Origin: an uncultured Clostridium sp.
GTDB taxonomy: Bacteria > Bacillota > Clostridia > TANB77 > CAG-508
DNA: 64,000 nucleotides
Assembly: GCA_930991035.1 (NCBI GenBank)
Contig: CAKNRV010000003.1
Span: forward strand, 1,097 to 65,096
Direction of reading: 5' to 3'
Made by a program: the position numbers and the translations under genes. Below are positions 4,269 through 38,383 of this stretch, one piece after another (positions within the stretch are counted from its first letter, which is position 1; each line of letters begins with the position of its first letter). The notes under the pieces are model-generated. The model did no database searches. It was not told the DNA's origin and was given only the letters and a program-made list of their open reading frames with translations.

Positions 4269-4383
4269 AACTTTCCCCTTTATTTGTTTATTTTATAAAA
4301 AGATAGAAAGCTTTTTTTACTTACTCATTTTGCTTTCTATCTTTTGCTTTATTTTTTAATTCAATTTATCGTTCTATTACCTA

Positions 4384-5094: not shown

Positions 5095-5312
5095 AAGATT
5101 TCCTCCTTTTTTATTTACAACTAGTATATCATAAATATAAATTGTTGCAAGATTTTTTTGTTACATTTCACAGTTTATTTTTATAGAAGAAGTATATACC
5201 TGTAAATTGTAACATTTTTTATTAAAACAAAAAATTTATACATAATTTCTTCATTTTAGGAAAATATATACTAAGATTACAAACATTTTCTAGAAAGGAC
5301 AGTGAATAAAGA

Positions 5313-7014
5313 TTGAAAATTGCAGATACTTTCAAAAAGTTTTTCTTTCCAGCAGAAGAAGAGCCATCACACGATTTTACTATGCCCAGCAGTAGCGAAG
5401 TAATTCCAAGTACGCCAGAAGAGATTGATAAACTTGATGATGTAAAAGATATTTTTCCCAGCTTGGACGTAAATATTGAGTACATCAAAGTTAAATACAA
5501 TTTACTTATAAACAGTGATATTATTCTTCGTGAATTTATTTTAACAGCCAGAAATAAGCAGTATAGAGCATTTTTATTTTTTATTGATGGTATGGTTAGC
5601 ACAGATTTAATAAATAATTATGTATTAAAACCTTTGATGCTAAAAAATCAAGCTAATTCTTTTGATGGAAATCAAAACCAAATAATTTCTGAGGCTGTGA
5701 CCAACAATATTACTGTAAGAAAGGTTAAAAAGTTTGATATTAAAGATTACATTTTAAATTCACTACTTCCACAGAATAATATTAAAATTCAAAAAGAGTT
5801 TAAAGATATTTTTGCTAGTGTAAACGCTGGTAACTGCGCTCTTTTTGTTGATACTCTAAATATTTCTTTTGATATTGATGTTAAGGGATTTCAATCAAGA
5901 AGTATTTCAAAGCCAGAAAACGAGGTTGTTCTTAGAGGCCCTCAAGAGGCTTTTATAGAAAATATACGTGTAAATACCTCTTTGCTAAGACGTATTATTA
6001 ATAATGAGAACTTGATAATTGAAAATATTAAAATTGGTAAAGTTAGCCAAACTAATTGTGCTTTATGTTATATGAAGAATATTGCTAATGACGATTTAGT
6101 AGCCGAAGCAAAGTACAGACTTAATAATATAAATATTGATTACCTTATTTCTTCTGGTCAGTTAGAGCAATTGTTTGAAGATAACAGCAAATATAGTCTG
6201 CCTCAAGTAATTGCAACAGAAAGGCCTGATAAAACCGCTACACATCTACTTGAAGGAAGAGTTGTTATTTTGGTAAATGGTAGCCCATATGCACTAATTG
6301 TTCCTGCTGTTTTTATAGATTTTTTGGAGTCTCCAGAGGACAATAATATTAAGTTTCAGTTTGCTAACTTATTAAAACTTATCAGAATTGCTTCCTTTTT
6401 AATTACTTTACTTTTGCCTGGAATATATGTTGCAATAACAAGTTTTCACCAAGAGTTTATACCAACAGAGCTATTGTTTGCAATAGTTGCATCTCGTGCT
6501 TCTGTTCCATTTTCTATTATTTTTGAAATTATTATTATGGAACTTTCTTTTGAACTTATTAGAGAAGCTGGGCTAAGGGTCCCTACTCCTATACGGTCCT
6601 ACAATTGGTATAATTGGTGCCCTGATAATAGGTCAAGCAGCGGTTGATGCTGGTATAGTTAGTCCTATCCTAATAATTATTGTTGCTCTAACTGGTATTA
6701 CTTCTTTTGCAATTCCAGATTACTATTTGGCGTTTCATTGCAGAGTAAGCCGCTTCACCTACATTATTCTAGGAGCTTTTGCAGGTCTTCTTGGCATTGC
6801 ATTTGGTGGTTTTATTCACTTACTTATTGCTACAAAAATAAAATCTTTTGGAGTTTCGTATTTAGATCCGTATATACCATCTAAAGGAAAGATTTTTAAT
6901 GGCATTTTTAATTCTCCTACTTGGAAAAAAGAAAAAAGGTCTGACTTTTTAGATACCAAAAGAGAAAACAGGCAAGAAAAAATTAGTATGAAATGGAAGT
7001 ATCCTAATCAATAA
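5313..7014 (+). pseudogene. Spore germination protein, GerA-family A subunit, interrupted by a +1 frameshift at 6594
   Basis: ORFs 5313-6647 and 6727-7014 are two halves of one GerAA/GerKA-like protein. Frame 0 reads ...EAGLRVPTPI up to 6593. The +1 frame from 6595 continues GPTIGIIGALIIGQAAVDAGIVSPILIIIVALTGITSFAIP..., the conserved GerA-A membrane segment. The extra base is C at 6594. The start is uncertain (TTG at 5313 or ATG at 5382). Confidence 0.85.
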
Positions 7015-7150
7015 AGTTTATATATTTTTCTACTAGAAAGTATGCAATTAAAAATTTATATATATACTATCTATTTTTGGTTTATAGGCACCCAACTAAA
7101 AACCTAAATATTATGTAAGGAGTATATGGTTTTATACAGCCATTAGTAAT

Positions 7151-8251
7151 ATGAACTACACAAAACTTGGTAATTTTGAAGCAATTTGCTTAATTGTAAT
7201 ATTGTTTATAAATCACATTGTATTAAATTTGCCACAAATGATTATTGATAATTCTGGTACTGCATCAATACTTAATTGTGTTTACATTTTGATTTTGGTT
7301 TTAATATTTGCAATACTTGTGGCAAAACTTTTAAAAAGGTTTACAGGACTTGATATAATTGATATTTCTGAATATTTAGGTGGTAAGTTTTTAAAAATCT
7401 TAATTGGAATTTTATGTATAGCATTCCTAGTAATTGAAACAGCTTTTTTAACCAGAATGTTTTCTAAAAATCTATTATTAGTTTATTTTGAAAATTATCC
7501 TATAACTTTTATAGTATTTTTGTTTTTATTTGTTGGAGTAGTAGCAAATTTAATTAGTAAAAAGTCCATCATAAAAACAAACACTATACTAGTCCCAATA
7601 GCCTTACTAAGTATACTTCTTACATCTATTTTTGTTATAGATTTATTTAGAGCAGAACGTTCTTTACCAATATTAGGAAATGGAGCTGATAAAATTTTTT
7701 TAACTGGTGCTAGTAATATTTTTGCATTTAATGGGTTATTCTTTTTATTTTTCATATCCCCTATGCTAAATAAAAAAGAATCTACTTCTAAAGTTGCTTT
7801 CTCTTCTATTTTAATATGTGGAATATTTTTAATTTTATCAATCTCAACATTAGTATATGCATTTTCTGATATTTACACTATTAATAGATTCTCACCAATG
7901 TATTTTATACTAATTAATAGTAGATTTAGTGTTTTTTTGGAAAGACCTGAAGCAATTTTTATATTTATTTGGACTCTGGCTCTTATGTCATTTATTAGTA
8001 TAGCAATAATGTTTTGTTTAAATATCTTTCAAAAGCTTTCTAATATGAAAGAAGTAAAGCCTTTATCAGCTGCTATTGCAACTATCATTTTTGTTCTGTC
8101 TATGCTTATTGATAATGTTTTTACTTTAGAAACATATGCTAATGCATTTTATAAATATAGCTCTCTGATACTAATTTTTGGAGTATTTACACTTGTGCTA
8201 ATATTCGCCAACATCAAAAAACGAGTTTTAGAGGGGAAAAGAAAAAGTTGA
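7151..8251 (+). CDS. Spore germination protein, GerA-family B subunit (APC-like permease)
   Basis: 366 aa with about 10 predicted TM helices. It sits between the A and C subunit genes. Confidence 0.8.
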   Translation: MNYTKLGNFEAICLIVILFINHIVLNLPQMIIDNSGTASILNCVYILILVLIFAILVAKLLKRFTGLDIIDISEYLGGKFLKILIGILCIAFLVIETAFLTRMFSKNLLLVYFENYPITFIVFLFLFVGVVANLISKKSIIKTNTILVPIALLSILLTSIFVIDLFRAERSLPILGNGADKIFLTGASNIFAFNGLFFLFFISPMLNKKESTSKVAFSSILICGIFLILSISTLVYAFSDIYTINRFSPMYFILINSRFSVFLERPEAIFIFIWTLALMSFISIAIMFCLNIFQKLSNMKEVKPLSAAIATIIFVLSMLIDNVFTLETYANAFYKYSSLILIFGVFTLVLIFANIKKRVLEGKRKS

Positions 8252-20625: not shown

Positions 20626-21285
20626 CTACATTTGATTTCTTCTAGCAATCAAATTATTAATCTTACTTACTTGCTCTTCTGCCATATCATAATTTTTGCT
20701 TTGAACTGCTACTTCAAGCACTCCTATTGCTTGCATTATGTCATTATCAATTTGTGTTGAATCTTCTTGTAATGTTACATTTGCATTTTTTACAGAGTCA
20801 TAAGCTTTTTCTATTTTCTTATATACTTCTCTGTCGTCTACCGATTGCATAATTAATTCTATTCTCTTTGCCATATCAGTTACTTTGTTATAATTTGCTT
20901 TATCAATATTAGTTATATTTTTCGATGCGTTGTTAGCCATTGTATTAGTACACATAACTATTGCAAATGATCCTAGTAAGATTACTTGAACAATTACAGA
21001 TAATGTAACACTTTTTACATTGATTAGTATAAATAGTGCACTGATTATAAATGTTAGCACTGAATATACTGCTACTATTGGGAATCTTGCATATCCTAAA
21101 AATTTCTCACTTTTATCTCCTGTTATTATTCCAGCTCCCCAGAATACTATGATTGATAAATTTAATCCTGCAATATTTATCCATCTAGCTGTTGTGTATT
21201 CTTTTAAAGATAAAAATACTACTACATTAACTATTGCTAATGCAACAATTCCAATTATTCCATATAACACTTTATTATTTTTCAT
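20626..21285 (-). CDS. 4-TM membrane protein with a C-terminal helical cytoplasmic domain
   Basis: 219 aa. Its ATG at 21285 shares a base with the stop of the upstream SPFH gene, which suggests translational coupling. Confidence 0.65.
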   Translation of the reverse strand: MKNNKVLYGIIGIVALAIVNVVVFLSLKEYTTARWINIAGLNLSIIVFWGAGIITGDKSEKFLGYARFPIVAVYSVLTFIISALFILINVKSVTLSVIVQVILLGSFAIVMCTNTMANNASKNITNIDKANYNKVTDMAKRIELIMQSVDDREVYKKIEKAYDSVKNANVTLQEDSTQIDNDIMQAIGVLEVAVQSKNYDMAEEQVSKINNLIARRNQM

Positions 21286-22481
21286 TAATCTTCCCTCCTA
21301 GTTCCGCAATTTCCACAGAATTTAGCTCCTGATGCAAGTTTTTCTCCGCAGTTTTTGCATACACTTTCTTCTATTTTTGCTCCACAATTTCCACAGAATT
21401 TACTATTTGCAGGAATTTCACTTCCGCATTTTGGACATTTTATATTTTTACTTTCTTGTTCTGTTGTAGCTGATTTTGGTGCAAATCTAGATACTCTACT
21501 TGTTCCAGCATTTTGTTGAGTTTGTTGTTGACTTACTTGCTCATTTTGCATTGGAGTAAATAATTGGTTTGCTAAACTACTAAATACCCCTGCTGAAGCT
21601 GCTCCCATTCCTATACCTGCTCCCATAGCTGCCATTCCTCCAGCTCCAGGGTTATTAGCAACATCTTTTAACAATTCCTTTGCTGTTAATCTACCCCACT
21701 CATCGCCTTGAACATTTAACTCTATCTTTCCAGCATGGGCTCTTGCATACGCTTCATTAATTGTTCTATAATTTGGATCATCTTCTGGAATTGATATGTC
21801 TGATACATAGAAGTTTACAAGTCTTATTCCATATTCATCCAATATTTCTGCCAAATCATTTTCTACACTCTTTCCTATTGTCTCTAATTCTGTATTCATA
21901 TCTAGGATAGTGTACTTGCATTCTTTCATTGTTTTAGCTATTGTAACTTTTATTTTAGATTGAAATGCAGACCTAAATTGTTCTTGTATTTGCTCTTTTG
22001 TAAAGAATTCTGTATTTCCAACTAATTTTACAAAGAACTTTTTAGAATCTTTTATTTGAATTGCATAACTTCCTCTTGCTCTTACTCCAACAGCAAATCC
22101 ATATTCAGCATCTCTCATTTGAATTGGAGAATCCGTACCCCATAGCATTTCTAGTTTGTGTGCTTTATCAATAAAGTAAATCTTACAGCTAAATGGGCTT
22201 TCTCCTCCTGTAACCATTTTTCTTAAGCCATTAATAAAAGGAAAGTTCTGTGTGTTTAAAGTATGCTTACCTGCTGTAATTGTTCCTACTACTACTCCAT
22301 CTTTCACAAATAGTGCTTCTTCCGATTCCATAACAATTATTTGCGAATTAGTATTAAAATCTTCTTTTGTGTGTTTCCACACAAGTAAATCGTCAATAGG
22401 TCTGTCATTTTTTATTACACTATAAAGTTCCATACCTTTTTTCCCTTCTTCATTATTTTCTTTGTTTCCAAAACCAAACAT
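21285..22481 (-). CDS. SPFH-like (COG4260, YdjI-type) protein with a C-terminal double zinc ribbon
   Basis: LLVWKHTKEDFNTNSQIIVMESEEALFVKDGVVVGTITAGKHTLNTQNFPFI ... MLWGTDSPIQMRDAEYGFAVGVRARGSY follows the YdjI/COG4260 pattern. A Q/G/A-rich linker leads to CPKCG..CGNCG and CKNCG..CGNCG. Confidence 0.8.
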   Translation of the reverse strand: MFGFGNKENNEEGKKGMELYSVIKNDRPIDDLLVWKHTKEDFNTNSQIIVMESEEALFVKDGVVVGTITAGKHTLNTQNFPFINGLRKMVTGGESPFSCKIYFIDKAHKLEMLWGTDSPIQMRDAEYGFAVGVRARGSYAIQIKDSKKFFVKLVGNTEFFTKEQIQEQFRSAFQSKIKVTIAKTMKECKYTILDMNTELETIGKSVENDLAEILDEYGIRLVNFYVSDISIPEDDPNYRTINEAYARAHAGKIELNVQGDEWGRLTAKELLKDVANNPGAGGMAAMGAGIGMGAASAGVFSSLANQLFTPMQNEQVSQQQTQQNAGTSRVSRFAPKSATTEQESKNIKCPKCGSEIPANSKFCGNCGAKIEESVCKNCGEKLASGAKFCGNCGTRRED

Positions 22482-22515
22482 ATTGTACCTCCTACAAATT
22501 ATTTACTCTATTTTA

Positions 22516-23118
22516 TTACCTATATCTTCCTATTCTAAGGCTAGTACATTCCGTAAATCCAAATGCAAAATCTAAATCTACTAAGCCTTCTGATACGTCT
22601 TCTTCTATTTTTTTCTTATTAAATTCTTTTACTTTTGTTGTATCTTTTAATACATTTTTCAATTTATTATATAATTCTTCATCTGTTTGTATTTTTCCTT
22701 CTTTTATTCTTTCTTTTGCCATTTCTAAGGCAGTATTTGAAGCAGAAATTATGTTTTCTTTTGCTTCGTCCCTTAGTAATTCAGATTTTCTTTGCTCCAA
22801 AGATTTGTCTTTCCATAGGTTTGTCTGTTCTTCCATTATGTCATTTACTTTATCTTCCATTCCTGCTGCTACATAACTTTCAATGCTGTCTCTATACACA
22901 TAGTTTAATTGTTTTTCTAGTTTGCTTCGCATTTCTTCTTTTTCGTCTTGGCTTACATCTTTTGTTGCTTCTGAAGTTACTTTTTCAATTAATTCCGCCA
23001 TTTTTTTATTTACTTTTTCTTCGTCTACTTCTTTTTCATTCTCCATCGGTCCACTAGTTTCTAATAATTTATTAAGTTCTTCTATTTCAGCGTTTATATT
23101 TTCCATAGTTAATATCAC
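22516..23118 (-). CDS. E/K-rich coiled-coil protein, function unknown
   Basis: 200 aa (GTG at 23118). ATG at 23106 with AGGAG upstream is the more likely start. No motif recognised. Confidence 0.6.
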   Translation of the reverse strand: MILTMENINAEIEELNKLLETSGPMENEKEVDEEKVNKKMAELIEKVTSEATKDVSQDEKEEMRSKLEKQLNYVYRDSIESYVAAGMEDKVNDIMEEQTNLWKDKSLEQRKSELLRDEAKENIISASNTALEMAKERIKEGKIQTDEELYNKLKNVLKDTTKVKEFNKKKIEEDVSEGLVDLDFAFGFTECTSLRIGRYR

Positions 23119-23156
23119 TCCTTCCTTAAGGTATAAATCTGGTTAATTTTCAACCT

Positions 23157-25538
23157 TTAATGTATATTTTTATTTGCATTTACAATCTTTAATGTTTCTA
23201 ATTTTTGTAATATTTTGTCTGCTTCTTGATTTGCTACTGTTCTTACATATTCGTCATTAGACTCTACTGCCAAATCGCAAAATTTACTATACTTTTCCCA
23301 TATTTCTTTACCTGATGGTCCAAAATTTTGCTCAAATTCATTTATTATAATTCCTGGTTGATTTTCAAAATATGCTTTATATAAATTACCTTTTCCTACA
23401 ATTCTTTCTAATTGTTCTGTTCTTCTAACATTAGGAGAATATGCCACATTATCTTCTTGATATTCGTCTTTCATAGCTCTCTTTGCGTAAAATTCAGTTA
23501 TTCCTTCATTTACTTGAGTATCTTTTCCTTCTATTGAAATACCTCTTCTTGTTATAATATCATTTTCACCCAAATATACATCATTAGCTGACATTTGATG
23601 TATATTCTCGTGTATTGTAGTATGTTTTATTTCTCTTGCATCTTTTCCTTCTACTATAATATAGCTTTTCTTACCATTATTAAATCCCAATATGTTTCTA
23701 GAGTATTCATCCCTTGACATACTATTATATGTTTCCTCCGCTTCTTGGTATCCCATATTTTTAACAGTATCAGATAATGGCCTTTCCATTTTTTGTTTAA
23801 ACCTATCTGTATTACTTAAATAGTTCATAATGTTTTCTTCTTCAAAAAATTGATTTATAGTCTCTTGTGTATCTTTTAAATTTTCATTACTATCGTTAAT
23901 TTTTTCTTGCAATTCTTTTGCTTCTCTTTCTTCTTTACTTAAGAATATTCCTCCAAAGATACCTTCATTTACTTCTTGTGAAGCATCTGGTTGCACTATT
24001 TCCTGTTTTTCTGTAATAGTTTCTGCTCTATTTATATTATTTGCATTTATTTTAGTATTTGCATTTTCTGTATCACTGATTGCATCTTTCCATTTTGGAT
24101 CATCATTACCTATTTCCCTTTGACCGTGGTCCATAGGTTTTGGTTTTTTATTTGGGTCATAATTTATATCGTCTGGTTTTGGTGTAGTATCTCTCATTCC
24201 AGCTAGATAGTTTCTAAAGTTCTTAGGATCATCTTCTCCTACATCATTTTTTACGTTTATTGGAGCATCTTCTGGCTTTTCCTTTTTCTTTCCACCAAAA
24301 ATTCCTTTTATTCTATCCTTAAAGCCTTTTTTATTACTTGTTTCATTTGAATTCTTTATGTCAGTATTATTATTAACCTTGGCTTCACTCTTTACATCAT
24401 TACTCCTAAAACCTGTTACAAAAATAGGCGTATCATAAATAGGTGTATCAGACATTTGAGGCTTATCTATATTAATATCATTAATATTATCCCTTATTTC
24501 TGTATCATTGTATAATTCTTTGTCAGGGACTATCTCTCTATCTCTTTCTATTACTTTATCTGCATCGTCATAAACGTCATTGTCTGCCTCTAGATTCTCG
24601 TCTTTTTCTTCTGGTATCTCTCCAGTGTATTCTTCTGACGGACCATCTGCTCCTTCAGCATCATCTTCTTCTGGAGTCTCAGGTATATCTCCATTGCCTC
24701 CTTCGTCGTCTAAATTGCTGTCATCTCCATTTGCTACATCATCTGTGTCATTACTTTTTTCTGGTCCATCTAATTCGTCTTGTTCTGGTGTTTCACTCGT
24801 TTCACCATTTTCGTCTTCTGGCACTTCGTTCGTGTCTTCTTCTACTTCTTTATTTTCACTGTCTTCCTCTTCTGGCACCTCGTCCGTGTCTTCTTCTACT
24901 TCTTTATTCTCGCTGTCTTCCTCTTCTGGCACTTCGTCTGCATCTTCTTCTACTTCTTTGTTTTCGCTGTCTTCCTCTTCTGGCACTTCATTTGTATCAT
25001 TTTCTTCGTCCGCGTCTGCACCTGTATCAAGTGCCTCGTCTTCTTCAACATCTGGTTCCGTATCTGTTCCCACATCAGTATTTATTCCTTCATCTTCATT
25101 TATCTCTGTGCTAGTATCTGTTTCTGAACCTGTATCCAATCCTTCGTCCTCAGTTACATCTTCACCAGTGTCTGCATCCGGTTCTGTATCTAATCCTTCG
25201 TCTGCACCCTCGTCAGTTTCTGTGTCTACATCTGAACCGGCATCTAACTCTTCGTCAGTTTCTGTGTCTATATCCGAGCCAGTGTCTAGCCCTTCATCTG
25301 CTCCTTCGTCTACTTCTGTGTCCATATCCGAGCTAGTGTCTAGCCCTTCGTCTACACTTACGTCTGCTTCTGTATCCATTTCTGAGCTAGTATCTAGCCC
25401 TTCGTCTGCACTCACATCGGCTCCTGTATCTACATCTGAATTAGTATCCATTCCAACATCTGAACTCACATCAGAGCTTGTATCCATACTTGTATCAGAA
25501 CTCATATCTGTGCTTGTGTCTGAAAATTCATCCCCCAT
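23157..25538 (-). CDS. Very acidic repeat protein with a C-terminal HExxH / NEGxTE zincin-like domain
   Basis: Start moved to ATG 25538 (AGGAGA 6 nt upstream). The first ~330 aa are D/E/T/S-rich degenerate repeats (DTSSD, DTETDEG, 18-aa EVPEEEDSENKEVEED units). HENIH is encoded at 23598-23612 and NEGITE at 23493-23510, 30 residues downstream. No signal peptide or TM helix. Confidence 0.75.
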   Translation of the reverse strand: MGDEFSDTSTDMSSDTSMDTSSDVSSDVGMDTNSDVDTGADVSADEGLDTSSEMDTEADVSVDEGLDTSSDMDTEVDEGADEGLDTGSDIDTETDEELDAGSDVDTETDEGADEGLDTEPDADTGEDVTEDEGLDTGSETDTSTEINEDEGINTDVGTDTEPDVEEDEALDTGADADEENDTNEVPEEEDSENKEVEEDADEVPEEEDSENKEVEEDTDEVPEEEDSENKEVEEDTNEVPEDENGETSETPEQDELDGPEKSNDTDDVANGDDSNLDDEGGNGDIPETPEEDDAEGADGPSEEYTGEIPEEKDENLEADNDVYDDADKVIERDREIVPDKELYNDTEIRDNINDINIDKPQMSDTPIYDTPIFVTGFRSNDVKSEAKVNNNTDIKNSNETSNKKGFKDRIKGIFGGKKKEKPEDAPINVKNDVGEDDPKNFRNYLAGMRDTTPKPDDINYDPNKKPKPMDHGQREIGNDDPKWKDAISDTENANTKINANNINRAETITEKQEIVQPDASQEVNEGIFGGIFLSKEEREAKELQEKINDSNENLKDTQETINQFFEEENIMNYLSNTDRFKQKMERPLSDTVKNMGYQEAEETYNSMSRDEYSRNILGFNNGKKSYIIVEGKDAREIKHTTIHENIHQMSANDVYLGENDIITRRGISIEGKDTQVNEGITEFYAKRAMKDEYQEDNVAYSPNVRRTEQLERIVGKGNLYKAYFENQPGIIINEFEQNFGPSGKEIWEKYSKFCDLAVESNDEYVRTVANQEADKILQKLETLKIVNANKNIH
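24810..24992 (-). repeat. 54-bp in-frame tandem repeat (~3.3 copies) inside the acidic protein gene
   Basis: It encodes EVPEEEDSENKEVEED(A/T)(D/N) three times, then a partial copy. The DNA copies are near-identical (cttctggcacttcg..gtcttcttctacttctttatt..). Confidence 0.9.
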
Positions 25539-25646
25539 TATTTTCTCCTTTCCTTCTTGAGGCACTAAAGTAGAGCTACAAATAAATTACTTACAATCGT
25601 CACTCTACCTTTTCTGTACCTTTTATATTTTTTATATTATTCTATC

Positions 25647-28337
25647 TTATTTATTAAATTCTGCACTAATTGTTTTTTGTGCTGCTATTTTAGAAAATGG
25701 TATTTTTGTGTTATACATTATTCTTCTTAAGAAGTGTATTTTTGTACAGCACTCCAATTTAGTGCTTATTCTTTCTCCTGTATATTCTTTTATCATTTCA
25801 GGAATTTGTTTGTATATTTCATTTAATTTATTTCTATCATTACTATCTTCATTAAAAGCTGACACATAAATTCTTCTAGCATATTCTTCCGATTCTGCCT
25901 TTAATTTATAATCACATCCATCATTACAGCAACTTGCACATTTGCATTGTAAGTATGGTCTAAGCATATCTTTTTTGTCATTCCAATATGTTGATTTTTC
26001 TGCAATTTCTTCGTCACTAATTGTTGTTCTAATACTTACTTTCTTTCTATAATCTTCTGTAACTAATTCTTCTGGCTCTTCTAAACCATTCATATAGAAA
26101 AATGCTTCACCTGGTCTTAATTTAGCAAGCCTTTCAACTTGAACATCTTTCATATCTGTGCAGTTACCTAATATTGTTCTATCATTTTTCTCAACTAAGT
26201 TAAATGCTAATTTTATATTTGTAAGTTTTACAACATCGTTTGTAACTTTTTCAGGTGATTGGTCTGCAATTACTATTCCAACACCTAAAGACCTGATTTC
26301 TGCAAGCATTCTTGTTAACAATTTTTTAGCTACCGCACTTGGATTTGCTTGCCCTTCTACCATATCGCTAGAAGCTGCTAATAGTACGTGTGCTTCTTCT
26401 AATAACAATAGATTTTTTAGCTCACCTGTTCCAATGAAATTGCTATTTACATATGACTGAATACTTAACAACAATAATGCAATTATCAATGATTTTTGCT
26501 CTTCATTTTCTATTGCTGCAAGTTCTATAACTGTTGGCTTTTTTAGTAAATCTTCTATTGGTATTGTGTTATAATTTCCAAATAGTCGTACTAAACTTTT
26601 AAATCTGACATATCCAGCTTTACCAATATTTGCTGCATCCCCTCTATAACCAATCCTTTCAAATACTTCCATAAATGTTTTTAAAAAGTCTTCCATTGTA
26701 AAGATATCTGCTCCATCGTCCGTTGTATAATGTGGTAACCATCCAGCTTTTGCATAGCACTCGTCCAATGTATCTTCAAATATTTTATCCAGTGGTGTTA
26801 CCATCGACACTGCTGCAGAAAAAGCCGTTTTTAAAACAGTTTTATAACTTTGTAATTTAACATTTTTAGGTGGTATAAATGGGTTTAGTATGTAAGGAGA
26901 TATAAAATCTTTTCCTGGTGTAAATACTTGTAAGTCCGGTATACTATCAACCATAGCTCTATATTCATTTTTTGCTGGCTCTATTACCAAAAATGGAATA
27001 TGATGCTCTTTCCATATTCTATCTAATAAGCTTACAGAAAATGTTGTTTTACCACATCCAGGAGTACCTACAATTAACATATGTTTTGTTAAATCTCCTA
27101 GAGAAAATCCTATTTGGTCTCCATTAGAAGAACTTTTTAGAGTTCCTACCATTATATCTCCATTGTTTATCACTTTTTTATTGTATTTTTTTGCACCTTT
27201 GTCCGCTTTACTTATATTTACTCCAGCCGCAAGTTCATTATCTCCATAAGGGATTCTAAAAAATTCGCTTGCTTCTTCACTTGTTACTACAAATGGAAGT
27301 CTTCCAAGTGGTGAATTTGCAAAGACTGGGTTTTCTGCGTTTTTGTCCATTAAAATTTCATTTATTACCCAAGGTAATGAAGAAAAATATTCTTTTACAT
27401 CAAGTTCATAATTTCCAATCTCATAATTTCTTAACTTGGCATATTCTCTTTTTTCTTTATTTCCACCAATACTTAATTCTCCACTTATTCTGTTTGTAAT
27501 ATTATTTATGTTATTGTAGTCTGAGCATATTAAGATATTATACGCAAATAGCACACCATATTTATTTGACTCATAATATTGACATATAGCTGATGGCTTT
27601 TCTGCTAATACATTTGGAGGTGTTCCCTCTGGGCCTGGTACTCCTTTGCTGATTATATCTAACGTACTACTGTATTGTTCCAAATTATTAATTTCATTTT
27701 GACTAAATAAAGTTGGTATTAAATCAATTATGATTGCTGAATCTGGATATTGCATTAAAGTAGTTACTATTTTTGTAAAGTTACAATCCTGTACTGGTAA
27801 TTTATCAAATGTAAAGCATTGAGGTAAATAAGCACTTTGTATATTTTCCAATCTATAATCTTTGGTTATCACTCTTTTCTCTTTACACTCAATATTCATA
27901 ATGTCATTTAATAAATTTTCTTTATCTTCTACTTCTGCTAAAGTATATTTATTAATTGCTAGAACTGACTTAATAGCATTTTTTAATTCTTGTAATCTAG
28001 AGTTAAGATATTCCTTATCTCCAGAAATACCCCTTAATACAATATATATTTTTACGTTTGCTCTATATGTTTGATTTTTTACTTCTTCAGATTTAAATAC
28101 TAGTTCAATTGAATAGTCTTGATTCTGATATTGACTTACAAAATCCTGTTTACAACCGAAAAAAAATTCTGTTAGCAATGTTTCAAATTCTTTTTTATTT
28201 TTTTGAGAAAATTCTTTTTCTTCTGATGGCTCTTTTACAAGTATAGATATATCTGGAATTTCTTTTATTTCAAATATATCAATTCCATTAAATTCCCCAT
28301 CTGCTAATTCAGTTATTAGGCATCTATTGCTTTCCAT
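25647..28337 (-). CDS. HerA/FtsK-superfamily (DUF87-like) P-loop ATPase with a large unknown N-terminal region and a Cys-rich C-terminal tail
   Basis: 896 aa. Walker A is VGTPGCGKTT (aa 423-432, nt ~27042-27071) and Walker B is LLLLEEAH (aa 643-650). The HerA-type segment is GVGIVIADQSPEKVTNDVVKLTNIKLAFNLVEKNDR. C-terminal cluster CKCASCCNDGC lies at aa 798-808. Confidence 0.75.
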   Translation of the reverse strand: MESNRCLITELADGEFNGIDIFEIKEIPDISILVKEPSEEKEFSQKNKKEFETLLTEFFFGCKQDFVSQYQNQDYSIELVFKSEEVKNQTYRANVKIYIVLRGISGDKEYLNSRLQELKNAIKSVLAINKYTLAEVEDKENLLNDIMNIECKEKRVITKDYRLENIQSAYLPQCFTFDKLPVQDCNFTKIVTTLMQYPDSAIIIDLIPTLFSQNEINNLEQYSSTLDIISKGVPGPEGTPPNVLAEKPSAICQYYESNKYGVLFAYNILICSDYNNINNITNRISGELSIGGNKEKREYAKLRNYEIGNYELDVKEYFSSLPWVINEILMDKNAENPVFANSPLGRLPFVVTSEEASEFFRIPYGDNELAAGVNISKADKGAKKYNKKVINNGDIMVGTLKSSSNGDQIGFSLGDLTKHMLIVGTPGCGKTTFSVSLLDRIWKEHHIPFLVIEPAKNEYRAMVDSIPDLQVFTPGKDFISPYILNPFIPPKNVKLQSYKTVLKTAFSAAVSMVTPLDKIFEDTLDECYAKAGWLPHYTTDDGADIFTMEDFLKTFMEVFERIGYRGDAANIGKAGYVRFKSLVRLFGNYNTIPIEDLLKKPTVIELAAIENEEQKSLIIALLLLSIQSYVNSNFIGTGELKNLLLLEEAHVLLAASSDMVEGQANPSAVAKKLLTRMLAEIRSLGVGIVIADQSPEKVTNDVVKLTNIKLAFNLVEKNDRTILGNCTDMKDVQVERLAKLRPGEAFFYMNGLEEPEELVTEDYRKKVSIRTTISDEEIAEKSTYWNDKKDMLRPYLQCKCASCCNDGCDYKLKAESEEYARRIYVSAFNEDSNDRNKLNEIYKQIPEMIKEYTGERISTKLECCTKIHFLRRIMYNTKIPFSKIAAQKTISAEFNK

Positions 28338-28540
28338 TTCTTCTCCCCTTATTTTATATTATAATTTGTTTAAATTCTCAGTTTATTATATTTTGTACGC
28401 ATAAACAATATTCTCTCATTTAGTTCTATGTGAACGGATATTATTTAAATACTTATAAAACACAATAGAACGACTACACTTTTATTTTATCACTTTTTTG
28501 TTTTTTTGTGTAGTATTTTTAACTAATTTGTCATATTTTA

Positions 28541-28569
28541 TTGAAAATTAAAGTTCTCTATGTTATATT
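28541..28569 (+). promoter_or_regulatory. Sigma-A-type promoter for the 28632 gene
   Basis: TTGAAA (28541-28546), 17-nt spacer, then TGtTATATT, an extended -10 (28561-28569). Confidence 0.5.
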
Positions 28570-28631
28570 AAAATAGTAAAATAATTATTGTTGTTTTGCC
28601 AAATTCCATATCTAAGAAGGAGAGTATTATA

Positions 28632-29453
28632 ATGAAAAAATTTGTTTCAGGAAAATGCCCTAATTGTGGGGCTGCTTTACAACTTGATAGTGAACAAACA
28701 AGTGCATTTTGTTCATATTGTGGTAGTAAAATTAGTGTTGAAGAATCTGTTGAAAAATTAAAACTTGAACTTTCTGGAAGCGTAGAAGTAGATGGAATTA
28801 ATTCAGTTAGCAAACTATATAAAAATGCTGAAAGTTATATGAAATTACAAGATTTTGATAGTGCTTTTAATACTTATGTCTCAATTGTTGATAACAATCC
28901 AGAAGAAATTCCAGCATATAAAGGAGCTTTAATAGCTGTTTCTCACAATATGACTCGTCTTGGTGATCCTCAAGAGGCATATCCTAGCAATTATTCTGGT
29001 TTATTCAATACATACTTAGATTATATAAAAAAATTAGACACAAAATCTGAAAATATTGATTTTGTTACAACTTTTACGGCATATTTTGATAAGCAAGCAA
29101 GTTTAGAAAAAAACACAGCATTATATGATAATCTAATAAGTCATATAAAGACTTTAAAAGACAATACAAAAAATTTAAAAAAGCATAGTTTTTCTTCAAC
29201 AGATTATTATAGTTTTTATTCAGTTAACGAGGAATATCAAACTATTATGAATTTATATAATCAACTAGATGAAGAATATAAAGCACGCATAACAGATATC
29301 GAAGATATTAAAAATTATTACAAAAAAGCATCTAAAAACAAAGGCTTTTTTTCACACGGCATAGGTAGAGTGCTTAAATGGTACTTTTGGTTTTGGGTTG
29401 CTGGCGCAGTTATTGGTGTTATAGTTGGAATTATACGAGCTTTTACTAATTAA
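28632..29453 (+). CDS. Zinc-ribbon plus TPR-like helical protein with a C-terminal TM anchor
   Basis: Start set at ATG 28632 (AAGGAG upstream). CPNCGAALQLDSEQTSAFCSYCG zinc ribbon, helical repeats (YKNAESYMKLQDFDSAFNTYVSIVDNNPEEIPAYKGA), and a C-terminal WYFWFWVAGAVIGVIVGII helix. Confidence 0.7.
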   Translation: MKKFVSGKCPNCGAALQLDSEQTSAFCSYCGSKISVEESVEKLKLELSGSVEVDGINSVSKLYKNAESYMKLQDFDSAFNTYVSIVDNNPEEIPAYKGALIAVSHNMTRLGDPQEAYPSNYSGLFNTYLDYIKKLDTKSENIDFVTTFTAYFDKQASLEKNTALYDNLISHIKTLKDNTKNLKKHSFSSTDYYSFYSVNEEYQTIMNLYNQLDEEYKARITDIEDIKNYYKKASKNKGFFSHGIGRVLKWYFWFWVAGAVIGVIVGIIRAFTN

Positions 29454-29490
29454 TAAGTTTTCGTTACCATTCATAGCTAATTTTAATACT

Positions 29491-29542
29491 GAGAAAAAGT
29501 ATATATTTTTTCTTTTAAAGATAAAAATATATACTTTTTCTC
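29491..29542. terminator. Bidirectional stem-loop (20-bp perfect stem) between convergent genes
   Basis: gagaaaaagtatatattttt (29491-29510) is the exact reverse complement of aaaaatatatactttttctc (29523-29542). Confidence 0.7.
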
Positions 29543-29611
29543 TAAAACAATATATTTTATAATATTGGCAAATTTGTTTCCATTTTCTTTTTTAATATTT
29601 TGGCAAACATT

Positions 29612-30439
29612 TTATTGCATTTTTTTGTCTCTAATTAAATTACGCATTGCAAAAATTTGGTCAGCGATTTCTTTTTTATCAACAGAACCTTCTGTATAAG
29701 TTCTAAATGCTCCACTATAACGTGTTCCAGCTAAAATAACAGAAACATATTCATTAATGTATCTTACATATTTTTTCTTCTTTGGAGCAAATTGCTTATC
29801 ACATACTTGAGATGTTGATACAGCTTCTATATCTTTGTAGAAGTATTCACTTGTTCCAGATTCATATACTAATCCTGTTGCTATATCTACATTTTCCCAA
29901 TAAATATATAATTGAGAATCACTGAAATAATAAACAGTGTTATGTAATAATGTGTATCTTAATTTGTCGTCAGAGCCAACTTTTACAAAGTATTTTGGAT
30001 CATCATCATTTTCCATTAATTGTTTTTTAGTATTCTTTTTGTTTAGCAATTTACCAAATAATCCTTTAGTGTTTTGCTCAAATCGAATTTTATCTGATGC
30101 TGTTATAGTTCTTGGTGCCATACCAGATGTTGCTATTGGGTCTATTAAAGAAACTTGCTCTTTAACAATTCCTAATCTTTCTAATGCTCTTGTTTTTGCT
30201 TGCTCTGCTTCATAAGCCATTGCCTTATCAACATCTTCTTCATGTGTAAAATCACTAAAGAATTTGTTTTTTATCCATAAAACTATTGCAGCAATTACAG
30301 CTACAACTCCTAAAAATCTAAAGAAACCTAATGGTACAAAGAAACATACTATACCAATAATAAGTACTAGCAATGGTACTACTGATTTTTTACCTCCAAA
30401 GTATGGTCTAATGTTACTACGATTAAAATTTTCTTGCAT
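29612..30439 (-). CDS. Membrane protein (two N-terminal TM helices plus a soluble domain), function unknown
   Basis: 275 aa with hydrophobic segments VVPLLVLIIGIVCFFVPLGFF and LGVVAVIAAIVLWI. No motif recognised. Confidence 0.6.
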   Translation of the reverse strand: MQENFNRSNIRPYFGGKKSVVPLLVLIIGIVCFFVPLGFFRFLGVVAVIAAIVLWIKNKFFSDFTHEEDVDKAMAYEAEQAKTRALERLGIVKEQVSLIDPIATSGMAPRTITASDKIRFEQNTKGLFGKLLNKKNTKKQLMENDDDPKYFVKVGSDDKLRYTLLHNTVYYFSDSQLYIYWENVDIATGLVYESGTSEYFYKDIEAVSTSQVCDKQFAPKKKKYVRYINEYVSVILAGTRYSGAFRTYTEGSVDKKEIADQIFAMRNLIRDKKMQ

Positions 30440-30662
30440 TTTTATTACATCCTTCCTTTTATTTATTTTTTATATTACTTAAAATATTAATTTTAGTAAC
30501 TTAAATTAATATTTTAAATTAATATCTAGTTTAATTATTTAACTATTACAAATTATTAGTTTTTGTGTTTTTTAGGTAATGAATATTTCTAATTCAAAAA
30601 TTCTAATTTTTATTAAAAGTACTATGTTTTAGGTTTCAATACATTTAATCTTTAAGCATTAT

Positions 30663-31262
30663 CTAAATAGCTAAATTAGGGTCAAATCCATCTATTTTTA
30701 GAATTTCTGCAAGCATTCTAATATCTTCTTGTGTTACTGAGCTTGATGCTCTTTGTAGTTCCTCTTCATAACTTGGTTCTTGTTTTAATCTTTTTAATTG
30801 ATAGTAATCATATTTTAAATATGCAATAAAATAGCTAAATATTCCTCTATCTTCTAACATTCTAGCAGTATTAGTTAAATCTATTGCTTGGTCAACAATC
30901 TGCCTTGTTTGGATAAATGGTCTTTTACCTTTTAGCAGACATACTGCATCCCAGAAATAAGCTTCTGGATTATCTATACTTTCTTCAATAGCTTTATTGA
31001 ATTTTTCTTCTGCCTTATCGTATGCATTTAATTTTAATAAGCACATACCCATTGATAGATTAATTTCTGGATTATCAGGGTGTTCTTCAAGTGTTTTTTG
31101 ATATGTCCCTTTGTATTGATTAAGATCTTTCATATCCATACCATATACACTATTAAATGTAGTTATTACTACTGGTCTACCACATGATTTACAATTTTTA
31201 GCAGATGTATCGACTGGTGCACCACATCCTGGACAAGTAATGTTTATAACTTCTAATGCCAT
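30663..31262 (-). CDS. Zinc-ribbon plus TPR protein (architectural paralog of 28632-29453)
   Basis: Start set at ATG 31262 (GGAGAGGAAG upstream). MALEVINITCPGCGAPVDTSAKNCKSCG is followed by TPR-like repeats (NLSMGMCLLKLNAYDKAEEKFNKAIEESIDNPEAYF). Confidence 0.7.
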   Translation of the reverse strand: MALEVINITCPGCGAPVDTSAKNCKSCGRPVVITTFNSVYGMDMKDLNQYKGTYQKTLEEHPDNPEINLSMGMCLLKLNAYDKAEEKFNKAIEESIDNPEAYFWDAVCLLKGKRPFIQTRQIVDQAIDLTNTARMLEDRGIFSYFIAYLKYDYYQLKRLKQEPSYEEELQRASSSVTQEDIRMLAEILKIDGFDPNLAI

Positions 31263-31372
31263 TATATTCTTCCTCTCCGTTAGTTTTAACAAAAATATTG
31301 TAACATATTTCGACAAAGATTGCAATATGTAAATTTCATAAATCTTTTGTATTTATACATATATTTTTCAGC

Positions 31373-35677: not shown

Positions 35678-36499
35678 TTATTGCAAATTACTTATATTGT
35701 GTCTTTCTGAATAAACTTTTAAAATATCTTTTGCGAAAGTATCAAAAGCTAGTGTAGCATATTCGATTGGGAACTGTTCTGAAATTAATCCATCTTTTTT
35801 TAATTCCTGACTATTTTTATATAGTTTTGGAATTTTTTTATTAAAATCAACAATTAATAACGTACATCTTTCATATAAGTAGCTTTCTTGTCCCAATTTT
35901 CTATTATTGATCGAATTAAAAAAGCTTATATATTTTTCTATATTAGTATGATGTGTTTTAAACCCAACTATGTTCTTTTTTGCTAAATCATTATCATACT
36001 CATAAGTTGGTATTAGATATACCTCACCTAAAACTATCTCATTATATCTTATATGTAAATTGTATGCTTCGGCAAATGTTCTTTCGAATAATGTATCTGC
36101 ATTTTTTGCTAAACTACTCATTTGACTACGAACATTTATCACTAATGAATTTTCTGAAAACTCATAACCATACTGGTCAATCTTATTTTCAAAAGCTAAA
36201 GGTCCCCAATTTATAATAATAGGTCTTTCTCGCATATTGGTTGGTAACACACAAATGTCTTGATTTTTTTGTTTTAAAAAACCTGCTAATTTTATTTCTG
36301 GGCTCTTTTTTCTAAATGGTGGAAAAATTTTATCTTTATTAACACCTTGCTTTATTAGTTCATACTTAACAGCATCATGTATCAAATTAATTAGAGCTGA
36401 TGATCTTATTACTGATGTTTTCCCTTTTGCTCCACCTGCTAAGATTGCATTTTCTATCATTTGTTTAAATTTAATTAATTGTTCTTCTATAAATTCCAT
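35678..36499 (-). CDS. Putative type II restriction endonuclease (partner of the upstream methyltransferase)
   Basis: 273 aa, 66 bp downstream of and co-oriented with an N6-adenine MTase. Extremely AT-rich. It has a possible PD-(D/E)xK-like arrangement (..NQDICVLP.. / ..LVINVRSQ..). The call rests mainly on context. Confidence 0.55.
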   Translation of the reverse strand: MEFIEEQLIKFKQMIENAILAGGAKGKTSVIRSSALINLIHDAVKYELIKQGVNKDKIFPPFRKKSPEIKLAGFLKQKNQDICVLPTNMRERPIIINWGPLAFENKIDQYGYEFSENSLVINVRSQMSSLAKNADTLFERTFAEAYNLHIRYNEIVLGEVYLIPTYEYDNDLAKKNIVGFKTHHTNIEKYISFFNSINNRKLGQESYLYERCTLLIVDFNKKIPKLYKNSQELKKDGLISEQFPIEYATLAFDTFAKDILKVYSERHNISNLQ

Positions 36500-36565: not shown

Positions 36566-38383
36566 TTATATATTTATATTATACTTATGAATCAACATTT
36601 TATTTATCTCTTGTTTATTATTACTCTCTAAAATTTTCAGTTCATTATTATTAAATTCTGGAATGGAAAATCTTTCTACATATTTTTTTTGATAGCAATA
36701 ATATCCTCCTTCTATTGTATAACTAGTATTTCTAATATAATACTTCATCAGATCTGAATTTAATATTTTTCCTAATACTTTTAGTGAAATTTTATCATTT
36801 TCAAAGATTGCATATCCATTACAAAATAATGCATTTTCATTTTCTATGTATTTAAACTTAGGATCTTTTGAAAAAGTTGGAAACAAGATCTTTTTACCAT
36901 ATTTATTTAATCCTTGCGTCCTACCATAAGCATACCATCCATAAGGATTTTTCTTTCCATTATCTCTCTTATCTAGTTTACTCTTCATATATTCTAAATA
37001 CTTATATGTGTCTGGATATTTGTTTTTTAATTCTTGTTCTTCTATCAATTTATACGTTCCTTTGCATTTGTAATATGGAAATATAATATATTGCATTGCA
37101 TCTTTTTCATTTTCACAATTTTTTAGTTCTGGAATCTTGTATATTGGCTTTACAATTTCTGGTTCAATATTAAATTTTATACCATCAACATTTTTATAAA
37201 ACTCATTTGCATTATTTTCAACTATATAAACCCCATCTTTTAATGTTGCAATACCTGTTCTAATAAATTCTTTTATTGGCATTTTTTGTCTCTCTATTTT
37301 TTTTATATTTTCAAGCGTAACTTTATTAACCAACTTCCACCCATTTTTATCTAATGCCGAGATGTCCATACTCTGATAATTTAGATTTTCTAGCTCTTTC
37401 TCAATATTATCACATTTATTCAAAACGACATACTTAAATTTTTTATTTATTTTTTTATTTAATTTTATTATGCAATTATATGTCCTAATCGGTTTAAATA
37501 TCATATTGTCTGCAAAATCAATTATAGATTCGATATTCTTTCCTGCTTGTAAAAGTTCTCTTAATCTATTTGCTGATTTTATAGTCAATACATTATTAGG
37601 AATAATATATTCAAGCGCTCCATTTTTATTTAAATATTTTAGTCCATTCTCTATAAATGCATAGCAAATATTAAATGTCCCTTTCTTAGTTGTTTCAAAA
37701 TTTTCTTTTAAGAATTTTACAGTATTCTTATCCATATTATGTGGATTTACATAAGGTGGATTTCCTATTATGTAATCAAACTTTTTTACGTTAAAAATAT
37801 TATTCCAGTTTTCTTTTAAACTGTCTGCAGTTACCAAATTAAGTTTGATGTCTTCTTTCAACTTTAGTTTATTGATTATACAATATAACTCTATTACATA
37901 TTTACATCTTCTGATATTATCTTCCATTATGTCAATACCATAAATATTCTCTTCTATTATTGTCTGTACATCAACTTTAAAGTGATTATGAATATATTCT
38001 ATTGCTGATATAAGAAATATTCCACAGCCACACCCTGGATCAATTATTCTTATATTTTTATCCCATACTTTTATGTTTTTGAAACAATCGTTAATAATAA
38101 AATCAGAAATATATTTTGGAGTAAAGACAATTCCATTTTCGTCCTTTTTTTCTTTATCTAATAAAAACTCAAAAAATTCTATTATATATTCTATATCTAT
38201 TGGAAATTTTTCTTCAATAAATATACTATATATTTTTTTATCTGTACTAGTATCTTCTAAAGTAATCATTCCTGCATTTACTTTTATATATTCAATTAGG
38301 CTTTCTTCTATTATTTCAACATCTGTTTTTACTAATTTCTTATATATTTTTTCAAAATAAGATATCCTTTTTTCTCTTTCCAT
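36566..38383 (-). CDS. Gamma-class N6-adenine DNA methyltransferase (Eco57I/TaqI-like, with C-terminal target-recognition domain)
   Basis: GIVFTPKYISDFI (motif X), IIDPGCGCGIFL (AdoMet motif I, aa 113-124), and IIGNPPYV (motif IV; NPPY encoded at 37751-37762). Confidence 0.88.
   Translation of the reverse strand: MEREKRISYFEKIYKKLVKTDVEIIEESLIEYIKVNAGMITLEDTSTDKKIYSIFIEEKFPIDIEYIIEFFEFLLDKEKKDENGIVFTPKYISDFIINDCFKNIKVWDKNIRIIDPGCGCGIFLISAIEYIHNHFKVDVQTIIEENIYGIDIMEDNIRRCKYVIELYCIINKLKLKEDIKLNLVTADSLKENWNNIFNVKKFDYIIGNPPYVNPHNMDKNTVKFLKENFETTKKGTFNICYAFIENGLKYLNKNGALEYIIPNNVLTIKSANRLRELLQAGKNIESIIDFADNMIFKPIRTYNCIIKLNKKINKKFKYVVLNKCDNIEKELENLNYQSMDISALDKNGWKLVNKVTLENIKKIERQKMPIKEFIRTGIATLKDGVYIVENNANEFYKNVDGIKFNIEPEIVKPIYKIPELKNCENEKDAMQYIIFPYYKCKGTYKLIEEQELKNKYPDTYKYLEYMKSKLDKRDNGKKNPYGWYAYGRTQGLNKYGKKILFPTFSKDPKFKYIENENALFCNGYAIFENDKISLKVLGKILNSDLMKYYIRNTSYTIEGGYYCYQKKYVERFSIPEFNNNELKILESNNKQEINKMLIHKYNINI

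Follow-up and report, generated by a model that had tools for sequence, protein, structure and literature searches.

Gene content of the locus

We describe here a gene cluster in a 64,000-nucleotide stretch of DNA (the window; G+C approximately 29%) from an uncultured Clostridium sp., in which a P-loop ATPase of the HerA clade is encoded beside a poly-acidic protein with an exchangeable C-terminus; by the sequence-level definition of such systems, the locus is a polymorphic toxin-immunity system. Open reading frame (ORF) calling found eight ORFs in 20626-31325. This confirmed the existence of the cluster and the coordinates, gene lengths and motifs put forward in the original prediction, an earlier reading of the sequence by a model. 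That reading had claimed nine genes; we count eight, as no credible ninth ORF was found in the inter-gene gaps of 20626-31262.

Five of the genes share the minus strand. They encode, in order, the 896-aa ATPase (25647-28337), a 793-aa polymorphic toxin (23157-25538), a 200-aa helical protein that is the probable cognate immunity protein (22516-23118, counted from a GTG; the product is probably 196 aa from ATG 23106), a 398-aa YdjI-like soluble SPFH protein with a C-terminal double zinc ribbon (21285-22481; Pfam Band_7_1 1.5e-42, DZR 1.3e-12) and a 219-aa protein with four transmembrane (TM) segments (the 4-TM protein; 20626-21285), whose C-terminal helical tail of ~95 aa is predicted to be cytosolic. 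Beyond the ATPase gene lie genes for a 285-aa protein with a zinc ribbon and a C-terminal TM segment, similar to YdjG in layout (28596-29453, plus strand; probable start ATG 28632), a 275-aa 2-TM hairpin protein with a C-terminal domain of ~200 aa predicted to be cytosolic (29612-30439, minus strand) and a 199-aa zinc-ribbon/TPR protein (30663-31262, minus strand; counted from ATG 31262, with the longest ORF starting at TTG 31325).

For the five-gene group, the spacings given earlier (81, 38 and 34 bp, and a 1-nt start/stop overlap) are correct and, as had also been reported, no terminator-like site was found on the minus strand between 28337 and 20626. The single long transcript proposed on these grounds is possible from the ATPase to the 4-TM gene; because the opposite-strand zinc-ribbon/TM gene splits off the zinc-ribbon/TPR and 2-TM genes, these fall outside it. 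The description of the 285-aa and 199-aa proteins as zinc-ribbon/TPR paralogs was too strong since they have only the zinc ribbon in common: a TPR region is supported in the 199-aa protein (Pfam TPR_17 7e-9, TPR_19, Zn_ribbon_3) and the 285-aa protein has zinc-ribbon matches only, at residues 20-48. When the eight proteins were searched against Pfam, nothing scored above cut-off for the 219-aa protein and there was no match at all for the 200-, 275- and 793-aa proteins. NCBIfam and PADLOC returned only superfamily-level ATPase matches (CedD, HerA, mad8), far below their cut-offs, and the reported lack of Sir2, DUF4297 and NurA partners held in all three collections; NurA was absent from the related loci as well. 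A 326-aa Ser-rich ORF on the plus strand (24580-25560) was rejected as a gene, being a mirror-image antisense artefact of the acidic repeats in the toxin gene.

The poly-acidic toxin and its immunity gene

The toxin is built from an N-terminal motif (MGDEFSDTS), disordered acidic repeats, a linker and a C-terminal toxin domain. Its start codon (ATG 25538) is preceded by the ribosome-binding site AAAGGAGA, and the motif plus the poly-acidic, D/E/T/S-rich repeat region span 24531-25538. The acidic tract contains up to 60% D/E per 60-aa segment, which is matched by no other ORF in the window, and is encoded by 54-bp tandem DNA repeats (24810-24989 and 25241-25488). Inspection of the 793-aa sequence showed neither a signal peptide nor a TM segment.

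We surveyed the neighbours of ATPase homologs by ORF calling and phmmer at 88 loci overall (numbered here with the prefix L), and the toxin architecture was kept at 71 of them. An N-terminal motif, M-x-[DE]-[DEG]-[FY], is present in 39 of these 71 homologs, often followed by S-V-D-T-S-D; all 71 have an acidic N-terminus and many of those lacking the motif begin with a similar acidic sequence. The D/E-rich repeat tract varies greatly in length, and the acidic proteins range from 300 to 1270 aa. Among 48 complete proteins that have the N-terminal motif and acidic region in common, the last ~230 residues form 22 clusters unrelated to one another. A Pfam scan covering part of these clusters identified, at other loci, WHH/Colicin-DNase (5e-13), the ADP-ribosyltransferase exoenzyme ADPrib_exo_Tox (2e-32), the NADase TNT (7e-10), Endonuclea_NS_2 (2e-21), the papain-fold glutamine deamidase Gln_amidase (Tox-PL1; 4e-10), Peptidase_C39_2 (3e-10) and the metallopeptidase DUF6782. 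The original prediction had treated the acidic protein as zincin-like and as the immediate partner of the ATPase; we rejected a fixed protease partnership because the C-terminal domain is replaced in close relatives and swapped among loci, in the manner of a polymorphic toxin.

The window's own toxin domain (23160-23804) is also found in L001, L004, L006, L024 and L083. The HExxH and NEGITE motifs pointed out earlier are present and, in the alignment of the domain, H65, E66, H69, N99, E100, T103 and E104 (HExxH and NE(G/A)xTE) are invariant. Pfam gave no match to the window domain and only a weak DUF1570 match for one relative, P0123. The AlphaFold2 (AF2) model (pLDDT 72.5, medium confidence) places a small sheet, the HExxH helix and the NEGxTE helix in an order compatible with a gluzincin, and had no significant fold match in the PDB by Foldseek. 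Given the lack of both a Pfam family and a significant fold match, we call the domain zincin-like, or gluzincin-like, by motif only.

Some homologs contain a pre-toxin element of ~50 aa (SE.EI.DRLAADKW.FQKEFL.DAFPGQD[IV]SPNVFNGF) that immediately precedes the variable part, at 210-310 aa from the C-terminal end. It precedes six different toxin types in L026, L044, L061, L068, L077 and L083, and may mark a site of processing or the junction at which recombination occurs. In the window, the corresponding stretch (ASQEVNEGIFGGIF) has weak similarity at best.

Several observations identify the 200-aa protein, labelled a coiled-coil protein in the original prediction, as the probable cognate immunity protein of the window's toxin: (i) its homologs were found only downstream of the same toxin domain type, and the diverged versions in L004 and L024 keep a C-terminal motif, SE.L.D.DF..G....S.R, that reads SE.LVDLDF..G....SLR in the window; (ii) across the C-terminal clusters with a called downstream ORF, the family of that small ORF follows the toxin type independently of ATPase relatedness; (iii) downstream of the WHH toxin gene lies one for a SUKH-1/SMI1_KNR4 protein, a member of a standard immunity family for nuclease toxins; and (iv) the window's toxin domain recurs at the C-terminal end of P0123, a protein with PG_binding_1 and the PAAR-like DUF4280 from an unrelated locus (L089), where it is surrounded by VgrG-like (Phage_GPD) genes and its stop codon is overlapped by a gene homologous to that for the 200-aa protein (BLASTP 2e-12). 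We also considered whether the 200-aa protein is PspA/ESCRT-III-like, as it sits where pspA sits relative to ydjGHI; this was rejected in view of its toxin-specific distribution and the absence of any Pfam match even at E<=10.

Comparison with L011, whose ATPase is 87% identical, shows a sharply bounded replacement. By blastn the two loci are 72-85% identical in the zinc-ribbon/TPR, 2-TM, zinc-ribbon/TM and ATPase genes and also in the toxin gene's initial ~90 nt; they have zero DNA similarity over 22485-25451 and align again, within the same range of identity, from the SPFH start codon. In the exchanged segment L011 has a C39-like toxin and an unrelated small ORF. The segment 22485-25451 (minus strand), which contains the toxin gene past about codon 29 and the immunity gene, is therefore an exchangeable cassette in which the toxin-immunity module has been replaced as a unit. 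At sequence level, C-terminal domains are swapped behind a conserved N-terminus and the downstream immunity gene co-varies with them, which are two of the features expected of polymorphic toxins.

Toxin genes were split or truncated at the acidic tract in L002, L003, L008 and L013, probably as a result of assemblies breaking at the repeats. Word-indexed protein searches with the toxin domain gave only 3 and 6 matches, so that low-complexity proteins were evidently under-sampled; the acidic repeats or the assembly breaks may be behind this scarcity of homologs. One database protein, P0122 (323 aa, on an ENA contig of 1913 bp), joins an N-terminal UvrA fragment to the last ~80 toxin residues through ...SYTHLDVYKRQ..., a peptide that we take to be a translated Illumina Nextera adapter, in which case the contig would be an adapter-mediated chimera and the protein no real fusion. 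The ABC exporter genes beside the cluster are lineage-specific neighbours. A link to them through double-glycine leaders and C39 processing was considered and dropped, the F-G-G motifs being heterogeneous and present in 14 of the 48 proteins.

The ATPase, its partners and their spread

The ATPase belongs to the HerA clade of the FtsK/HerA superfamily. It matches Pfam DUF87 at 39.7 bits (cut-off 23.2) and consists of an N-terminal domain of ~390 aa, a RecA-like core and a C-terminal helical region. Walker A (GTPGCGKTT) and Walker B (LLLEEAH) are intact and conserved in the family, and the C-terminal region contains four near-invariant Cys (C798, C804, C808 and C864, within residues 794-864; window ~25746-25958). 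When the family profile was run against the PDB, the best matches were to the HerA clade (5.9e-19), FtsK was marginal (3e-3) and VirB4, EssC and EccC were not matched. In a Foldseek search with the AF2 model (pLDDT 87.6), the C-terminal half matched HerA (1e-14), DndH-C and the VirB4 C-terminal domain; for the ~390-aa N-terminal domain there was no match among the matches listed. The protein falls outside HerA proper, as the NCBIfam HerA equivalog models score only 25-34 bits against cut-offs of 800-970. Family members have a uniform length of ~890 aa and form 4809 clusters at 50% identity with E<=1e-3 (1684 with E<=1e-30). Putative metal-binding Cys clusters recur in nearly every soluble component of these loci, namely in the ATPase C-terminus, in the ribbons of the SPFH, zinc-ribbon/TPR and zinc-ribbon/TM proteins and in a YidD-like domain described below.

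Downstream of the toxin and immunity genes, an SPFH gene is found within 10.5 kb of the ATPase in 37 of the 38 loci that have at least 8 kb of downstream DNA, and 4-TM homologs follow it in 30 of them. The 4-TM protein is likely the membrane anchor of the SPFH protein, and it is the obvious candidate because its start codon and the SPFH stop codon share 1 nt and the product has the predicted cytosolic helical tail. In Bacillus subtilis, YdjI is soluble and is brought to the membrane by YdjG and YdjH (PMC8581546; PMC11237479). Upstream, 2-TM homologs directly precede the ATPase in 43 of 88 loci and in 16 of the 34 loci with complete context; the latter count comes from single-sequence phmmer and is a lower bound, as an iterated search finds 61 members. 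The 2-TM protein is a conserved membrane component. Homologs of the zinc-ribbon/TPR protein (E 1e-40 to 1e-120), a candidate accessory or adaptor, adjoin the ATPase in 21 of the 34 complete-context loci (55 of 88 overall). Homologs of the zinc-ribbon/TM protein, a recurrent but optional accessory, were found in 20 of 88 loci, where they usually follow the 4-TM gene; L011 and L012 place the gene as the window does. For both zinc-ribbon families we used single-sequence phmmer counts, the iterated hidden Markov models having drifted onto generic zinc ribbons. For YdjG itself we have the N-terminus, MIISYKCPNC, as given by a primer sequence in PMC8581546. Read from sequence, the soluble parts of all the TM partners are predicted to be cytosolic, and none of these proteins has a large extracellular domain.

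Two further kinds of membrane protein are frequent at related loci. One is a 2-TM protein, not present in the window, that has a YidD-like domain (...RLRCxxxPSCSEY...RCHPPGGxDYP; PF01809) at its C-terminal end; it is encoded directly upstream of the ATPase in L004 (9416-9952) and in about 26-34 other loci (e.g. L023, L026, L033 and L083). The annotation of YidD, membrane-protein insertion efficiency factor, hints that membrane insertion belongs to the mechanism. In one ATPase subclade, tandem arrays of one to five paralogous 4-6-TM proteins (170-215 aa; motif Y-E-N-G-K-x-L-x-x-L-G-F) are located between the ATPase and the toxin (L068:12721-15834, L004:12683-13779, L032, L055, L023 and L074). 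The idea that these are immunity proteins was rejected; because the same family accompanies different toxin types, they are probably parts of the apparatus.

In a one-genome-per-species scan we found 80 loci with ATPases 43-91% identical to that of the window. The hosts are Bacillota, Acholeplasmataceae, Bacteroidota, Kiritimatiellia, Victivallales, Opitutaceae, Planctomycetaceae, Treponema, Coriobacteriales and Fretibacterium, and the gene set recurs across at least seven phyla. The usual order is zinc-ribbon/TPR (~197 aa), 2-TM (~210-280 aa), often the YidD-ending protein, and the ATPase, followed by zero to five multi-TM proteins, the acidic protein, a small ORF, SPFH (~390 aa) and 4-TM (~226 aa), with flanking genes that vary from locus to locus. 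The association of these neighbours is far beyond chance. Outside the window's lineage, ATPase identity is 43-50% in each phylum, other Bacillota included, and this evenness points to horizontal spread. Among the outcomes that the original prediction named as speaking against it are a lack of co-occurring neighbours and membership of the ATPase in a family such as VirB4/TraC. Neither of these was found: across the 80 genome loci and many phyla the homologs keep their neighbours, and the ATPase gave no Pfam CagE or AAA_10 match and has HerA as its best relative in the PDB profile search.

More distant ATPase homologs, at 28-30% identity, are still linked to an SPFH-DZR gene (L090:7494-17790 and L091:3936-17252). 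The architecture there comprises the ATPase, the SPFH-DZR protein, a 229-241-aa protein in the 4-TM position, a ~660-aa protein, proteins of 380-604 aa and a ~60-aa ORF. In L090 the protein in the 4-TM position is alike in its 4-TM-plus-helical-tail layout, the ~660-aa protein has an N-terminal zinc ribbon, two of the large proteins are of coiled-coil/TM type and the ~60-aa ORF is acidic, starting MANDE.... The Priestia megaterium plasmid pN447-3.1 (L099; NZ_CP064271.1, 106849-113322) encodes an ATPase homolog of 963 aa (31% identity) and, after it, an acidic protein of 1135 aa with tandem repeats; no SPFH gene was seen nearby. The plasmid is mobilizable and the species is cultivable and genetically tractable, making this version a possible experimental entry point.

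The L001 cassette lies ~8 kb from a type II Cas9 gene (21055-22691) with transposase genes on its other side, and that of L004 lies beside integrase, group II intron reverse transcriptase and conjugative-element genes (1-7539). Both contexts fit an island-like, mobile setting. A phage origin was rejected, as only one full-length relative turned up in the viral contig collection.

Possible toxin export and competing explanations

The toxin-immunity cassette is embedded in a conserved ATPase/SPFH/TM/TPR gene set, and the ATPase is coupled to a poly-acidic protein. The nearest analogue in logic is type VII secretion (T7SS) in its T7SSb/LXG form, in which an FtsK/HerA-superfamily P-loop ATPase is encoded beside polymorphic toxins that have a conserved N-terminal targeting region, variable C-termini (nucleases, NADases) and downstream immunity genes. 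In Staphylococcus aureus a flotillin (SPFH) scaffold has been reported to aid T7SS assembly. The window's system differs from T7SS in several respects: (i) its ATPase is a single HerA-clade domain without TM segments or FHA, scores 15.3 bits with FtsK_SpoIIIE against a cut-off of 24 and does not recover EssC or EccC among its PDB profile matches; (ii) WXG100, LXG, EsaA, EssA and EssB were not detected by Pfam in the eight window proteins; (iii) its targeting region would be a disordered poly-acidic tract, whereas LXG is a helical domain; and (iv) it occurs in diderm phyla too. Polymorphic toxin systems as surveyed in 2012 (PMC3482391) have the same succession of trafficking region, optional pre-toxin element, variable toxin domain and immediately downstream immunity gene, exchange cassettes between strains and use toxin-immunity pairs common to several delivery systems. 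However, our search of that survey turned up no trafficking mode that joins a HerA-clade ATPase to SPFH and to a poly-acidic region at the N-terminus.

The resemblance to other HerA and SPFH systems is more partial. Sir2-HerA/Nezha, DUF4297-HerA and archaeal HerA-NurA likewise combine a HerA-clade core with an adjacent gene for an enzymatic effector. They differ in that the window has no Sir2, DUF4297 or NurA and matches PADLOC weakly and through the ATPase only, its ATPase has the additional ~390-aa N-terminal domain and a Cys-rich C-terminal region, and its effector is polymorphic and comes with an immunity protein and obligatory membrane and SPFH partners. The PspA-YdjGHI (SamGHI) module of B. 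subtilis also places a soluble SPFH protein of the Band_7_1 type, ending in a zinc ribbon, beside potential small membrane anchors, and YdjG corresponds in layout to the zinc-ribbon/TM protein; PspA_IM30, Snf7 and a TPM-domain YdjH are, however, absent from the eight window proteins, where the module is tied to the ATPase and the toxin-immunity pair. VirB4 proteins, which are ~800-900 aa long, resemble the ATPase in overall size and in the fold of the C-terminal ATPase domain, but there is no sequence-level membership in VirB4/TraC (the NCBIfam TrbC match covers the Walker A region only, at 17.8 bits against 800) and type IV secretion system genes are absent from the conserved set. We found no prior description of the ATPase/SPFH/poly-acidic arrangement in full-text literature of incomplete coverage, and the suggestion that this is an undescribed conflict system is upheld to that extent.

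We think it somewhat more probable than its negation that the locus is a polymorphic toxin-immunity cassette within a conserved, horizontally mobile gene set acting as a dedicated trafficking or export apparatus. For the machine itself, that is, the assignment of a trafficking or export function to the ATPase/SPFH/TM/TPR set, we put the chances at about even. In the working model, the ATPase, as a hexamer in the cytosol, would recognise the toxin by its free N-terminal motif (M-x-D/E-E-F), thread the unfolded, polyanionic and in this sense DNA-like acidic tract through its pore and pass the toxin to a membrane platform of small TM proteins. The SPFH protein would organise this platform at the inner face of the membrane, with zinc-ribbon and TPR proteins as adaptors, and the immunity protein would neutralise the toxin domain in the producer cytosol before export and shield sibling cells. 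Bearing on this model are the intact Walker motifs, the HerA-like translocase core, the predicted cytosolic placement of the TM partners' soluble parts, the persistence of the ATPase link to an acidic protein at 31% ATPase identity and of its link to SPFH at 28-30%, the scarcity of full-length relatives (one) in the viral contig collection, and the reported shortage of known toxin secretion systems in gut Bacillota that is taken up below. A bolder version is possible, although we lean slightly against it: a new type of protein export in which a HerA-clade motor, ordinarily a pump for DNA, grips a disordered, DNA-like acidic tract marked by an N-terminal M-D-E-E-F, serving as a main route of toxin release in gut Clostridia and, through horizontal transfer, in Bacteroidota, PVC bacteria, spirochaetes and Synergistota. 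The trafficking or control module of this toxin system appears to be undescribed in any case, and there is a substantial chance that it represents a categorically new export system.

A number of observations weigh against export. Secretion of the toxin is itself a proposal, and the window's toxin domain resembles zincins by its motifs only, its model having no significant fold match. The apparatus has neither a component with a large extracellular domain nor an outer-membrane component, yet an equally compact cassette is found in diderm Bacteroidota, Kiritimatiellia, Planctomycetota, Spirochaetota and Synergistota, which leaves delivery into a target cell unexplained. In both sequence and structure the nearest relatives of the ATPase are HerA proteins of DNA handling or defence and not secretion ATPases. 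Several loci, especially those of the PVC group, have no ORF between the toxin and SPFH genes. Finally, no toxin is obvious in the distant subfamilies at 28-30% identity, although the ATPase and SPFH are retained there, so that the handling of toxins may be derived.

Some of these points would be accommodated if the genes served intracellular abortive infection or defence against mobile elements, the main rival to export but a reading that we regard as unlikely. The HerA-clade ATPase would sense or move invading DNA, with the acidic tail as a DNA-mimicking pseudo-substrate that parks the toxin; infection would free the toxin from its inhibitor and the cell would be killed or arrested. The immunity protein would then be an antitoxin, and the SPFH and TM proteins would position the complex at the membrane, the site of phage DNA entry, or control it there. 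The closest PDB relatives of the ATPase are HerA proteins, several of them from defence complexes (Sir2-HerA, DUF4297-HerA, TdpAB, DptH), which agrees with this, as do the weak PADLOC matches to mad8 and HerA, an effector repertoire (NADase, nucleases, ADP-ribosyltransferase, peptidases) that overlaps that of defence systems, transfer across phyla into island-like contexts (Cas9 in L001, integrase and conjugative-element genes in L004), and the use of one cassette in monoderm and diderm hosts without envelope-spanning parts. Yet PADLOC gave no system-level match and has no family for the SPFH, toxin, immunity or TPR proteins, immunity genes that travel with the toxin domain (the PAAR/VgrG context, the WHH and SUKH pair) are a signature of interbacterial toxins, and the conserved motif at the extreme N-terminus resembles an export signal. 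The logic of the toxin-immunity cassette likewise argues against the anti-phage analogy with Sir2-HerA and DUF4297-HerA.

The original prediction also raised membrane stress. A Psp-like module for stress or remodelling, in which the ATPase and acidic protein would help to maintain the membrane, with toxin domains added secondarily, could draw on the YdjI architecture (Band_7_1 plus zinc ribbon), the YdjG-like zinc-ribbon/TM protein and the persistence of ATPase, SPFH and 4-TM in distant subfamilies without a recognisable toxin. We consider it very unlikely, given that PspA, ESCRT-III, YdjH and the TPM domain were undetected by Pfam in the eight window proteins, that the position where PspA might be expected is occupied by a toxin-specific immunity protein, and that cassette polymorphism and cross-phylum transfer are unexpected for a housekeeping stress system; what stands of the idea applies at most to the SPFH, 4-TM and zinc-ribbon/TM proteins and not to the rest. 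It is also highly improbable, in our estimation, that the ATPase pumps DNA for a conjugation-like or transfer element, with the acidic toxin as a co-transferred 'polyvalent' protein acting in the recipient. The ATPase core does resemble the VirB4 C-terminal domain (TM-score 0.72-0.75, normalised to the target), L004 adjoins conjugative-element genes and a homolog is present on the mobilizable Priestia plasmid, but relaxase, coupling-protein and VirB6/VirB8-like genes are absent from the conserved set, Pfam gave no VirB4 or AAA_10 match and most loci are flanked by ordinary chromosomal genes.

Many gut bacteria may use this gene set to handle polymorphic toxins or to export them. Strain competition in the gut is shaped by such toxins, and a gap stated in recent work (PMC13556189, 2026) is that most toxin-carrying gut Bacillota, including most gut Clostridia (Ruminococcus, Lachnospiraceae, Oscillospiraceae), have no known dedicated secretion or delivery system. 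A diverse toxin-immunity repertoire tied to one widespread gene set (the 1684 ATPase clusters and at least seven phyla noted above) provides a testable candidate for the missing machinery. Coupling of a HerA-type DNA translocase to a polyanionic protein would be a new mode of substrate recognition, and the obligatory SPFH partnership would give bacterial SPFH proteins a defined client. Should the genes instead serve intracellular defence, they would make up a new HerA-based system with interchangeable effectors, each with its own inhibitor. The N-terminal motif together with the acidic tract offers a handle for finding new toxin and immunity families.

Elsewhere in the window, just beyond two ABC exporter genes, a DNA methyltransferase of the Eco57I/MmeI type, which carries a TaqI_C specificity domain, is encoded at 36566-38383 (minus strand), and an unassigned 273-aa protein adjoins it at 35678-36499 (minus strand); the two may form a small restriction-modification island.

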